The notes under the pieces are model-generated. The model ran no database searches and was not told the origin of the DNA. It saw only the letters and a program-made list of their open reading frames with translations. Positions 39,331-42,310 of a stretch of 64,000 nucleotides of DNA are shown here, in pieces. A program made the position numbers and the translations under genes. Source of the stretch: Algoriphagus sp. (lineage in GTDB: Bacteria; Bacteroidota; Bacteroidia; Cytophagales; Cyclobacteriaceae). Each line of letters starts with the position of its first letter. The first letter of the stretch is position 1. Location of the stretch: contig JAFMBQ010000001.1 of NCBI GenBank assembly GCA_017858365.1, positions 4,052 to 68,051 on the forward strand, written 5' to 3'.

Positions 39331-40305
39331 TCAAATAACTACGACCCCTTTACCCAACATTTTTCTATCTAATAATGCCTGCAAGGCATCCGGAGCTTCT
39401 GATAAAGAATACTGCTTACTAATATGCTGGTGAATTTTCCCTTCCTTAATCCACTGAACTAGCTGCCCAATATTTTGAAAGCTTTGTTTAGATTCAAGTT
39501 TGGAAAACTGTCCCCAAAATACGCCCATAATGGCGCAGCCTTTCAACAAAGGAAGATTCATTGGGATTTTTGGTATTTCACCATTAGCAAAGCCCACAAT
39601 CAGGTAACGCCCTTTCCAGGCAATTCCTCGCAATGCAGCTTCTGTATAATCTCCACCTACTGGATCGTAAATTACATCCACCCCTTTTCCTCCGGTCAAC
39701 TCTTTGATCCGAGTTTTCAGATCTTCAGTGGAATAATTGATCGTTTCGGAAGCGCCCTTTTCGCGACACAGCGCAAGCTTCTCATCAGAAGAGGCAGCAG
39801 CAATGACTTTTGCTCCCATCACATTTCCTAATTCCACAGCCGCTAGTCCGACTCCGCCGGCAGCGCCTAGAACTAGCAATGTTTCTCCAGGCTGGAGATG
39901 CGCCCGATCTTTCAGTCCATAAAATGAAGTGCCATAAGTATATAATGTAGTCGCGGCAATCTCTGGAGTTAATCCCGGAGGCATTGCAAAAACTCGATCT
40001 ACATCCACTGCTACTTTTTCTGCAAAGCCACCCCAGCCACAAAGCGCCAATACCGATTGCCCGACTTGGAATTGCGTTACTCCTTCTCCAACTTCAATAA
40101 CTTTCCCAGCCACCTCTCCTCCTGGTGAAAAAGGTAACTCCGGTTTAAATTGATACTTATTTTGAATGATCAAAGCATCTGGAAAATTAACCCCACAAGC
40201 TGCTACTGCTATCAAGATTTGATTCTTTACCGGTTTGGGATCTGGGAGTTCCCCTAAAGTCAGACTTTCCGGGAGGCCAAATTGATTACAGATGATTGCT
40301 TTCAT
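39331..40305 (-). CDS. NADPH:quinone oxidoreductase (zeta-crystallin/MDR family)
   Basis: Start MKAIIC at 40305; GVNFPD, FSPGGE, VLGAAGGVGLAA, DVIYDPVGG. Confidence 0.9.
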   Translation of the reverse strand: MKAIICNQFGLPESLTLGELPDPKPVKNQILIAVAACGVNFPDALIIQNKYQFKPELPFSPGGEVAGKVIEVGEGVTQFQVGQSVLALCGWGGFAEKVAVDVDRVFAMPPGLTPEIAATTLYTYGTSFYGLKDRAHLQPGETLLVLGAAGGVGLAAVELGNVMGAKVIAAASSDEKLALCREKGASETINYSTEDLKTRIKELTGGKGVDVIYDPVGGDYTEAALRGIAWKGRYLIVGFANGEIPKIPMNLPLLKGCAIMGVFWGQFSKLESKQSFQNIGQLVQWIKEGKIHQHISKQYSLSEAPDALQALLDRKMLGKGVVVI

Positions 40306-40310
40306 AGTTA

Positions 40311-40344
40311 AAATTTTGCCACAGAGGCACGAAGACACATAAGA
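40311..40344 (+). repeat. Left arm of inverted repeat, built of degenerate octamers
   Basis: AAATTTT GCCACAGA GGCACGAA GACACATA AGA. Confidence 0.8.
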
Positions 40345-40388
40345 TTTTTTAAATTAACATTTTTAAATCAATGAGTATATAAACTTTT

Positions 40389-40793
40389 GTGAATTACGGG
40401 AAGCCAACAGATTTTGAGGAAAAGATTGGAAGAGCGGTTGTGCATGCCGCATATACAATTCACAAGACTTTAGAACCGGGACTTTTAGAGCGGATATATC
40501 AGGTTTGCATGGAGCATGAGCTCAAAAAAATAGGTTTTGATGTGAAGCGGAAAGTAAATATTCCGATTTGCTACGATGGAATTTTGTTTGACGAAGGACT
40601 CCGGCTGGATTTATTAATTAATGATCGAGTCATTGTAGAACTTAAGGCAGTAGATCAGGTCAATCCAATTTGGAAGGCTCAAATTATAAGCCCTCTCAAA
40701 CTATCTCAATTGAGGTTGGGTAACCTGATCAATTTCAATGTGCCCTTGATCAACAAAGGCATCAAACGTGTTTTAAACACAAAACAATTATAA
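40389..40793 (+). CDS. GxxExxY protein (PD-(D/E)xK nuclease superfamily), possibly degenerating
   Basis: GLLERIY, RLDLLI, IVELKAV, LINFN; GTG start, with an in-frame ATG at 40371 interrupted by TAA at 40380. Confidence 0.85.
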   Translation: MNYGKPTDFEEKIGRAVVHAAYTIHKTLEPGLLERIYQVCMEHELKKIGFDVKRKVNIPICYDGILFDEGLRLDLLINDRVIVELKAVDQVNPIWKAQIISPLKLSQLRLGNLINFNVPLINKGIKRVLNTKQL

Positions 40794-40797
40794 TGTT

Positions 40798-40831
40798 TCT
40801 TAATGTCTTTGTGCCTTTGTGGCAGAAATTT
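40798..40831 (-). repeat. Right arm of inverted repeat
   Basis: Minus strand AAATTTCT GCCACAAA GGCACAAA GACATTAA GA; the 21-nt core matches the left arm at 19/21. Confidence 0.8.
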
Positions 40832-40887
40832 GAGTAAATCTAGTAAGTGAAAATCAAATAAAACTAGGCATTTCCTGCCGAAAAGGA

Positions 40888-40895
40888 TAATTTTG
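40888..40895 (+). promoter_or_regulatory. -7 box upstream of the M20 dipeptidase
   Basis: TAATTTTG. Confidence 0.55.
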
Positions 40896-40924
40896 AGGCC
40901 TTTACTAAAACACAAAATTCTTTT

Positions 40925-42310
40925 ATGGCTGTTAACGATTTTATCCATTCCAATAAAGACCGATTCCTCAACGAATTACTCGATTTACTCCGCATTCCTT
41001 CCGTAAGTGCTGATCCTAAATTCAAAAACGAGGTCTTTGCTGCGGCAGAATTTGTCAAAAATTCCCTTGAGAAAGCAGGCGCTGATAGGGTAGAAATCTG
41101 TCAAACAGCAGGCTATCCAATTGTGTACGGGGAAAAAATCATTGACCCAGCCTTACCGACAGTTTTGGTATATGGTCATTACGATGTGCAGCCAGCTGAT
41201 CCCTATGAACTTTGGGATTCTCCTCCATTTGAGCCAGTAATCAAAAACACTAAAATCCATCCTGAAGGAGCCATTTTCGCAAGAGGATCAGCTGATGATA
41301 AGGGTCAGTTTTACATGCACGTGAAAGCTTTTGAAGCCATGATGGCAGAAAATGACTTGCCTTGTAATGTAAAATTCATGATCGAGGGAGAAGAAGAAGT
41401 CGGTTCAGACAATTTAGACAAGTTCGTCATTGAAAATAAAGAGCGACTAAAAGCCGATGTGATTCTGATCTCAGATACACACATGATCTCTATGAAGAAC
41501 CCATCTATTACTGTTGGGCTTCGTGGCATGGCCTATATGGAAGTAGAAGTTACTGGGGCCAATCGGGATCTTCACTCTGGCACGTACGGTGGAGCAGTGG
41601 CTAATCCAATCAATATCCTTTGCGACATGATCGCTTCGATGAAAGATGAAAACAATCACATCACCATCCCGGGCTTTTATGATAAAGTACAAGAGCTCAC
41701 TGAAGCTCAGCGAGCCAGATTAAACGAGGCTCCTTTTAGCCTAAATGAATACAAAGAGAAACTAGACATTGCCGATGTAGAAGGGGAAAAAGGCTATACC
41801 ACTATTGAGCGAATCGGAATCCGTCCAACGTTAGATGTCAATGGAATCTGGGGAGGCTATATTGGTGAAGGAGCTAAAACAGTTTTGCCATCCAAAGCTT
41901 CTGCTAAAATCTCCATGCGTCTGGTACCAGATCAAGACTGGAGAGAAATAGCTGCCATTTTCGAAAATCATTTCAAATCCATCGCGCCGGATTCTGTCAA
42001 AGTAAAGGTGAAAGCGCATCATGGCGGTGCTCCAGCGGTAGTTTCAGATTCCTCACTAGGATATCAGGCTGCAGAGGCTGCAATGGAGGAAACATTCGGT
42101 AAGCGTCCTATCCCAACACGCGAAGGAGGCTCCATACCGATTGTTGCTTTGTTCCAAAAGGAACTAGGATCGGATCCAATATTGTTTGGCTTTGGACTGG
42201 ATACAGATGCACTTCACTCACCGAATGAACATTATGGGGTGAAGAACTATTTTATCGGTATTGAGACGATTGCGGCTTTCTTCAAGCATTTTAGAAAACT
42301 TAGCAAATAG
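40925..42310 (+). CDS. M20-family dipeptidase
   Basis: YGHYDVQP, ARGSADDKGQ, EGEEEVGS, DLHSG, GGSIP, HSPNEH. Confidence 0.92.
   Translation: MAVNDFIHSNKDRFLNELLDLLRIPSVSADPKFKNEVFAAAEFVKNSLEKAGADRVEICQTAGYPIVYGEKIIDPALPTVLVYGHYDVQPADPYELWDSPPFEPVIKNTKIHPEGAIFARGSADDKGQFYMHVKAFEAMMAENDLPCNVKFMIEGEEEVGSDNLDKFVIENKERLKADVILISDTHMISMKNPSITVGLRGMAYMEVEVTGANRDLHSGTYGGAVANPINILCDMIASMKDENNHITIPGFYDKVQELTEAQRARLNEAPFSLNEYKEKLDIADVEGEKGYTTIERIGIRPTLDVNGIWGGYIGEGAKTVLPSKASAKISMRLVPDQDWREIAAIFENHFKSIAPDSVKVKVKAHHGGAPAVVSDSSLGYQAAEAAMEETFGKRPIPTREGGSIPIVALFQKELGSDPILFGFGLDTDALHSPNEHYGVKNYFIGIETIAAFFKHFRKLSK

Follow-up and report, generated by a model that had tools for sequence, protein, structure and literature searches.

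Why a small nuclease gene should be enclosed by inverted arms built of degenerate 8-nt repeats, and whether such arms are read as DNA or folded as RNA, are questions raised by a locus of Algoriphagus sp. (Bacteroidota). The locus lies in a 64-kb stretch of contig JAFMBQ010000001.1 (assembly GCA_017858365.1), hereafter the window, whose numbering is used for all coordinates given without a locus name. An earlier note on this DNA had singled it out as a self-contained cassette made of one gene of the GxxExxY family and its two flanking arms. Comparison with loci from relatives, designated by L-numbers such as L001 and L112, revealed that the association of octamer arrays with GxxExxY genes is real and general, and that the arms repeat a sequence motif in inverted orientation and are not a covarying RNA stem. 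Tentatively, we favor a reading in which the GxxExxY nuclease recognizes these arrays as DNA.

A nuclease gene between octamer arrays

The two arms form an extended inverted repeat (40305-40337 and 40804-40836) of 33 nt that is 82% complementary, counts 27 Watson-Crick pairs, 4 G.U pairs and 2 mismatches, and leaves 466 nt between the arms. Each arm consists of three or four degenerate octamers with the motif CAC-N-R-AG-R. On the + strand, the left arm (40305..40341) carries the octamers GCCACAGA GGCACGAA GACACATA at 40318-40341, and on the - strand the right arm (40792..40836) carries the units GCCACAAA GGCACAAA GACATTAA at 40823-40800, followed by a degenerate fourth unit, GAAACATT (40799-40792), that overlaps the final two bases of the stop codon. 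Scored for ungapped complementarity, the cassette reached 21.4, approximately 10 standard deviations (SD) over 391 control placements elsewhere in the window (mean 9.2, SD 1.2, maximum 15.4). Furthermore, the two-unit pattern GVCACRRAGVCACRRA, allowing at most one mismatch, had 3 matches in the 64 kb compared to 0.04 expected, all of them within the arms. A chance origin of the arms is excluded by these pattern and control-placement statistics together with those of a permuted control. An intrinsic terminator was also rejected, as no T-run follows the 3' arm.

The 19/21 match reported for the cores in the earlier note is correct, with coordinates within about 1 nt, and its description of a self-contained cassette is upheld. 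Its placement of the right arm 4 nt after the stop codon is approximate only, as the fourth unit overlaps the stop and the well-matched part runs from 40800-40804.

The enclosed gene (40389..40793, + strand) starts with GTG and encodes a protein of 134 amino acids (aa) that matches, over its full length, both the GxxExxY model TIGR04256 (E = 1.4e-36, 125.4 bits for a cut-off of 35) and PF13366, PDDEXK_3 (E = 4.5e-35, 121 bits for a cut-off of 22). PF13366 was the sole Pfam match of this open reading frame (ORF); no transposase domain was detected, and the protein is not of the HUH/Y1 (IS200-like) type. Neither the PADLOC models of anti-phage defence nor the PHROGs phage models matched it. The G-x-x-E-x-x-Y motif is present as GLLERIY (residues 31-37), and the catalytic residues E34, D74 and E84-x-K86 are all retained. 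Among 87 diverse members of the family, E34 and E84 are invariant, D74 and K86 are found in at least 90%, and Q98 is also invariant or nearly so. At near-invariant positions, the window protein bears the lineage-specific substitutions G29E, H102P and Y112N.

An AlphaFold2 (AF2) model built from these 87 sequences replaced a model from 21 close homologues whose predicted local distance difference test (pLDDT) of 56 made a fold search meaningless. With a pLDDT of 94.3 and a predicted template modelling (pTM) score of 0.87, it displays the PD-(D/E)xK fold, with two N-terminal helices followed by a beta-beta-beta-alpha-beta core. The top Foldseek matches in the PDB were PD-(D/E)xK enzymes (Cas4 SSO0001, lambda exonuclease, CinB and the archaeal tRNA-splicing endonuclease EndA), all of them distant (E = 0.012-0.25, TM score at most 0.50, probability up to 0.97), and no solved structure was found that matches by sequence. 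The model shares with solved PD-(D/E)xK nucleases their core fold and their D...E-x-K arrangement for metal binding, whereas the protein is much smaller than Cas4 and lambda exonuclease and is devoid of the Fe-S cluster module. The model thus places the GxxExxY protein on a distinct minimal branch of this fold. The family is large, comprising 12,356 clusters at 50% identity. Little was gained from a profile search with alignment A1, which recovered the Bacteroidota subfamily again. Approximately one tenth of the top matches were relatives of 266-295 aa with two GxxExxY domains in tandem (P0157, P0162, P0166, P0170, P0173 and others), suggesting that the working unit is a dimer. These tandem proteins are possibly single-chain dimers.

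Whether other GxxExxY genes carry such arms was a point raised by the earlier note, and a genome scan revealed that they do. The scan yielded 23 loci encoding relatives that share 42-79% identity, in Algoriphagus, Ignavibacteriota/Chlorobi, Anaerolineae, Puniceicoccaceae, a gammaproteobacterial symbiont, Gemmatimonadaceae and Planctomycetota. Nearly all flanks displayed a purine-rich arm upstream of the gene and its complement downstream, each with three or four units of 8-9 nt. The unit reads CAC-N-R-AG-R in Bacteroidota, Ignavibacteriota, Chloroflexota and Gemmatimonadota, is of a CGC type in the verrucomicrobial and gammaproteobacterial loci, and is a different 9-mer in the planctomycete. 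The arm statistic exceeded 13.4 in 27 of 30 GxxExxY loci (window controls, 9.2 +/- 1.2). Arrays of the CAC or CGC type occur at no fewer than 12 of 15 independent GxxExxY sites, in at least 8 phyla, the array-bearing groups being Bacteroidota, Ignavibacteriota, Chloroflexota, Verrucomicrobiota, the gammaproteobacterial symbiont, Gemmatimonadota, Planctomycetota, Marinimicrobia and Acidobacteriota. Algoriphagus sp. A40 has two GxxExxY paralogues at different loci, and arms are present at both.

The arrangement of the arrays varies. In Marinimicrobia, Acidobacteriota and an organism from an anaerobic digester, additional loci have the gene between two complete hairpins, each made of a 5' arm, a short loop and a 3' arm, and in L237, L238 and L240 these flanking hairpins give a layout reminiscent of clusters of repetitive extragenic palindromic (REP) sequences. 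Additional solo hairpins adjoin the Chloroflexota copies. Many Algoriphagus copies have two right arms, one short and proximal, the other full and distal (L113-L116, L001, L002, L024), and a single one is found in the window, L112, L111 and L025; the number of arms therefore changes over time.

Hairpins of the CAC-N-R-AG-R motif also exist without an ORF, in tRNA spacers, beside the Chloroflexota cassettes and in unrelated intergenic regions. In related genomes, such dispersed copies lie within a few kb (the tRNA spacer of L001, the Chloroflexota loci). In Algoriphagus-like genomes, the hairpin CCACGAAGGCACAAAG...TTGTGCCTTTTTGG sits between two tRNA genes (L001:1664-1736, from A. terrigena, and L036:360-430). 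In the Anaerolineae locus L020, a single coxS-coxL frame crosses two hairpins in frame, without stops. The coxL hairpin is missing from L012, in comparison with which it is a clean 96-nt in-frame insertion, TTTTCTCACCGC...GCGGTTCA. This insertion shows that ORF-less arrays insert as DNA; no target-site duplication was found at it, the sole clean case. The coxS loop between TIEGLA and LHPLQ holds differing palindromic insertions among Anaerolineae (L007-L020; L012:838, L011:3681, L013:3667). These surface-loop insertions of CoxS-like proteins are all translated in frame, and the octamer hairpin is one of them; a recurrent one translates as LTPSPSPAGRGG, and another holds CTCCCCCCAAAT...ATTTGGGGGGAG.

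The three-unit pattern was found in at least 120 stretches of a viral-contig collection compared to 6 with a permuted control of the same composition. Most of the viral stretches listed are hairpins with loops of 9-130 nt, and 33% of the listed hairpins lie inside a long open frame compared to 80% of random segments. The ORFs found between arms in viral contigs matched no Pfam family, hence no second cargo family can be named. Altogether, an array near the gene is the rule and the gene near an array is the exception, an asymmetry shared with REP sequences and their REP-associated tyrosine transposases (RAYTs).

Sequence motif or RNA stem

Inverted arms can be maintained for the sequence of their units or for their ability to pair. 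To distinguish the two, positions within the unit were analyzed in 102 non-redundant hairpins, in which CAC and AG were fixed by the search pattern and are hence uninformative. N2, either A or G, is uniform within an element, with an agreement of 0.98 among the units of an arm and 0.93 between arms, whatever the register, thereby defining array subtypes. Agreement between arms at N1 and R7 was 0.49 and 0.34 in register and 0.60 and 0.45 after a shift of one unit; for neighbouring units of a single arm it was 0.54 and 0.43. None of the 102 hairpins was perfect (24/24), the mean being 19.2 matches of 24. Many mismatches between left and right arms around GxxExxY genes are transversions at N1. 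Overall, 39 mismatches were of the G.U type and 36 of the A.C type, and the Ignavibacteriota loci lean the opposite way. Since complementarity at the variable unit positions is not register-specific, the arms are arrays of a sequence motif in inverted orientation and not a covarying RNA stem. Pairing is a by-product of opposed arrays of one motif, not what selection maintains, which favors a sequence-specific reading of the individual units. Distant phyla share the CAC..AG core, and the other unit positions are free, in keeping with the proposal of the earlier note that the 8-nt units may be recognition units.

The best surviving alternative to recognition as DNA is nonetheless set at the RNA level, and we consider it unlikely. 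It supposes that the cassette behaves as an intervening sequence (IVS) of 23S rRNA: the transcribed arms would pair, RNase III would cut the stem, and the RNA of the ORF would be excised or insulated, with the nuclease gene as a passenger. The analogy, drawn in the earlier note, is apt in architecture. The IVSs of Coxiella and Leptospira measure approximately 0.4-0.7 kb, have terminal inverted repeats and one small ORF of unknown function, and are likewise patchy in distribution, with reported decay of the ORF. In Coxiella burnetii, RNase III cuts the 28-bp terminal stem of the IVS, and the 5' arm of this IVS contains tandem GACAGAT heptamers whose number varies between strains (PMC4990558). 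We did not encounter this parallel to octamer arms elsewhere. Furthermore, the arms pair with each other in both structures predicted by RNAfold, minimum-free-energy and centroid (z = -4.9), such that an RNase III substrate would form if both arms were transcribed. All five core mismatches of the window and of its nearest orthologue, L112, are G.U on the sense strand, which fits RNA pairing in this lineage. Several copies are also co-oriented inside operons, between coxM and coxS in Chloroflexota and between a response-regulator gene and a histidine-kinase gene in L240, where excision from the polycistronic RNA would limit harm.

The unit-position data speak against this alternative and against the loop-out of the ORF by paired arms that the earlier note had proposed. 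Besides the missing register-specific complementarity, the total lack of perfect hairpins and the balance of G.U and A.C mismatches, several loci where the gene stands between two complete hairpins neither have nor need an enclosing stem, and the coxS and coxL copies are translated through, so that RNase III cutting there would destroy the mRNA. Unlike the IVSs, which are located in helix 25 or 45 of 23S rRNA, the cassette lies between two protein genes, and neither the window region nor 20 related loci matched rRNA; its ORF belongs to PF13366 instead of encoding an S23p four-helix bundle, and its octamer arms are without pairing-specific covariation. No Rfam family matched, as the cassette (permissive threshold) and the 20 related loci (gathering threshold) returned only two tRNAs and two chance matches. 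Finally, this exact strain is represented by assembled contigs in only two metatranscriptomes, whose coverage of the gene on the left of the cassette stops at 40325 and 40330, within the left arm, and whose coverage of the gene on its right starts at 40920. No contig of these two metatranscriptomes spans the ORF or links the arms, and the ORF sequence was found in none of the RNA runs searched, which is weak negative evidence for its expression.

History of the insertion site

The site occupied by the cassette is delimited by a quinone oxidoreductase gene on the left (39331..40305, - strand), whose ATG is the reverse complement of 40303-40305 and which lies outside the cassette, and by an M20 peptidase gene on the right (40925-42310, + strand; feature 40888..42310). 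The TAATTTTG box at 40888-40895, which we take to be a promoter from the Bacteroidetes -7 consensus TAnnTTTG, is also outside the cassette and is conserved in loci with and without it. Further neighbours are ordinary (OsmC, MarR and DsbD, by Pfam labels taken from the syntenic locus L111).

With the M20 peptidase as query, a scan of metagenomes provided 80 syntenic loci. The full cassette, in a spacer of 608-619 nt, is present in the window, L001 and L025, and also in L111-L116. In L026, the closest relative (M20 peptidase 96% identical), a 200-nt remnant retains the left arm and decayed pieces of the right arm, and the ORF is deleted. A possible relic of the left arm remains in L031, L033, L034 and L037. 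L030 carries three tandem ORF-less units of approximately 200-250 nt (L030:1689-2501), each bounded by the arms CAACACTAAGTAACAAAGGGCATAAAG ... CTTTGTTTTCTTTGTGACTTTTGTGGT; every one of these units also holds a second, internal inverted repeat. In L036 (2072-2389), a gene for a PemK/MazF-like toxin (PF02452, E = 1.4e-15) and a small upstream ORF replace the GxxExxY cassette. Small selfish cassettes appear to use this spacer as a landing site. An empty site, which the earlier note had suggested looking for in relatives, exists in the more distant L039, where the spacer is a truly empty 85 nt, and the ORF-less remnant of L026 occupies the same position. L039, the sole empty site, is too diverged for the exact ends of the cassette or a target duplication to be defined in Algoriphagus.

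Among Algoriphagus orthologues, the ratio of nonsynonymous to synonymous substitution rates (dN/dS) of the GxxExxY gene is 0.03-0.08, and synonymous sites are saturated. Synteny is conserved, and the identity of GxxExxY proteins tracks that of two neighbours (r = 0.66 and 0.58). Because of this low dN/dS, the saturated synonymous sites and the parallel divergence with the neighbours, we conclude that the cassette is old, vertically inherited with its neighbours and under purifying selection, and not a recent arrival. The retained catalytic residues and the same low dN/dS indicate that the protein looks functional. In an alignment of left arms with eight orthologous or paralogous arms, TTTGCCAC-N-AAG-GC.C-N-AAG was kept. 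As this consensus outlasts saturated synonymous divergence, the arms too are under selection. Directly inside the left arm, the motif TTAAATTAA (40349..40357, strand not assigned) was recognized by sequence comparison and is kept in all Algoriphagus copies, the paralogous locus L024 included; it may be a promoter element of the ORF or of the divergent left neighbour. The left neighbour at L024 is also divergent, and the left end of the cassette may supply or overlap the promoter of its neighbour.

In the sublineage of the window, the gene may be losing its constraint. Between the window and L112 the dN/dS is 0.20, and a GTG start replaces ATG. In L112 (1501-1905), the nearest orthologue with 88% identity, the catalytic aspartate is replaced (LRLDLL to LRLNLL, D74N). 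Together with the substitutions of the window protein and the deletion of the ORF in L026, this replacement suggests that the gene is relaxed or being lost in this sublineage.

This history bears on a second alternative, quite unlikely in our view, in which the hairpins are independent elements and the gene of a dimeric GxxExxY endonuclease of a homing type inserted at the center of its own target, splitting it into two arms. Small PD-(D/E)xK homing endonucleases exist, e.g. I-Ssp6803I, and the dimer implied by the tandem double-domain relatives would suit a symmetric site. The ORF stands exactly between a 5'-type and a 3'-type arm, intact hairpins are far commoner than genes, and the intergenic site also hosts other small selfish cassettes, such as the toxin gene of L036. 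However, old and strongly purified orthologues that diverge with their neighbours do not match a cycle of gain, decay and loss, the two A40 paralogues (85% identical, saturated dS) reveal no recent movement, and complete hairpins on both sides of a gene are unlike a split target. For the copy in the window, age, inheritance with its neighbours and purifying selection likewise do not support an actively homing unit, the earlier note having proposed a mobile or homing-like one.

A nuclease and its proposed cognate arrays

By analogy with known systems, the cassette appears to work most like REP/RAYT and to look most like the ORF-bearing IVSs of 23S rRNA. As in RAYTs with their REP sequences or REPINs (the 'REPtrons' and 'TIRtrons'), a small nuclease-type gene is flanked by inverted short repeats, and the repeat is far more abundant elsewhere as ORF-less palindromic doublets, which for the octamer motif were seen in related genomes and viral contigs. 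RAYT genes are inherited vertically, in a housekeeping-like manner, and do not multiply themselves (PMC5581495, PMC3337134, PMC3733652). The GxxExxY gene is likewise vertical and housekeeping-like by its dN/dS and its correlation with the neighbours, a tracking that resembles reports on RAYTs (PMC5581495). REP sequences also occur inside coding regions (PMC3733652), as the octamer arrays do in coxS and coxL. In contrast, GxxExxY proteins are PD-(D/E)xK enzymes (PF13366) and RAYTs are HUH/Y1 enzymes of the IS200 type, and thus the enzyme that defines REP/RAYT is not the one found here. The arms are non-palindromic tandem 8-mers, whereas a REP is one imperfect palindrome tagged with GTAG or CGTC. 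Two or more GxxExxY gene copies can also reside in one genome, a further difference from REP/RAYT.

Miniature inverted-repeat transposable elements (MITEs) of bacteria are similar in that short palindromes are found both in intergenic DNA and as in-frame, translated-through copies in conserved genes. Rickettsia palindromic elements are likewise inserted in frame in protein genes. The arrays differ from both by the absence of target-site duplication in the one clean insertion (L020 versus L012), by the absence of an associated DDE transposase and by arms made of tandem octamers. With neither a transposase domain in the cassette nor a duplication at the L020 insertion, assignment to insertion sequences or MITEs fails.

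The reading that we favor is a REP/RAYT-like pairing, to which we give somewhat less than an even chance, in which the GxxExxY nuclease recognizes octamer arrays as DNA. The cassette would be the protein-coding form of a widespread class of octamer-array elements (CAC-N-R-AG-R on the 5' arm), which usually exist as short, ORF-less, hairpin-like palindromes and would characteristically surround GxxExxY genes. The GxxExxY protein, a minimal and probably dimeric PD-(D/E)xK nuclease, would read the arrays as DNA sequence and nick or cut at or near them. This cutting would maintain or spread ORF-less arrays in trans, as RAYTs do for REPs and REPINs. The Algoriphagus copy would be an old, vertically inherited resident, apparently decaying in the sublineage of the window. 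The anatomy of the cassette, the generality of its arms, the motif character of their units, the insertion of ORF-less arrays as DNA, gain and loss at one site and purifying selection were observed; from them we infer that the arrays are bound by GxxExxY and that this protein cuts DNA and thereby mobilizes them.

Several points weigh against this pairing. We know of no PD-(D/E)xK hydrolase that carries out strand transfer. As the earlier note had stated, the window contains no other copy, i.e. neither a second octamer array nor a second GxxExxY gene in 64 kb. None of the 120 viral stretches listed (1.08 Mb) contains a GxxExxY gene, and such genes are rare in the viral collection (5 loci). Because these stretches bear arrays without the gene, arrays exist far from any GxxExxY gene and may depend on something else. 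Among GxxExxY loci, L023 has different arms, the arms of L108-L110 are AT-rich and L248 has one arm only; moreover, orthologous loci are not independent of one another. The CAC and AG of the hairpin set carry no weight, and the sense-strand G.U mismatches shared by the window and L112 count here too. Finally, the one survey that lists the family gives its function as unknown and notes multiple transfers (PMC3424549).

A last alternative, very unlikely in our opinion, is that the arms are operator arrays, bound by a host factor or by GxxExxY as a repressor to control the enclosed gene and its neighbours without mobility, on the model of MetJ, omega or ParG, which bind tandem boxes of 7-8 bp. 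Units that are sequence-constrained, repeat with an 8-bp period and occur in direct and inverted order are consistent with it, as is the position of the left arm within the region of the 5' leader of the divergent oxidoreductase transcript, but it leaves unexplained the in-frame coding copies, the tRNA-spacer copies, the tandem ORF-less units, presence and absence at one site and the abundance in viral contigs.

A search of the literature on GxxExxY, PF13366, TIGR04256 and S23p, incomplete in its coverage, revealed no paper that ties the family to flanking repeats, and a search with the arm sequences returned primer coincidences only. The class of octamer-array elements is therefore undescribed in the literature searched, and an earlier description elsewhere is possible. 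Extended beyond Algoriphagus, the pairing of nuclease and arrays leads to a wider proposal that we regard as possible but doubtful: GxxExxY proteins would be the dedicated nucleases of unrecognized octamer-array palindromes found in many phyla and in phages, a second and mechanistically independent partnership of the REP/RAYT kind, and the ORF-bearing IVSs of 23S rRNA would be the same broad class landed in rRNA. If so, a very large family of small nucleases would gain its first testable function and a candidate substrate, and a new class of short palindromes would be seen to invade intergenic DNA, tRNA spacers, coding genes and phage genomes, covering phyla in which REP-like repeats have been little studied. 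The long-puzzling ORF-containing rRNA intervening sequences would share a common origin with it, and an enzyme that reads a modular 8-bp array could be of practical interest.

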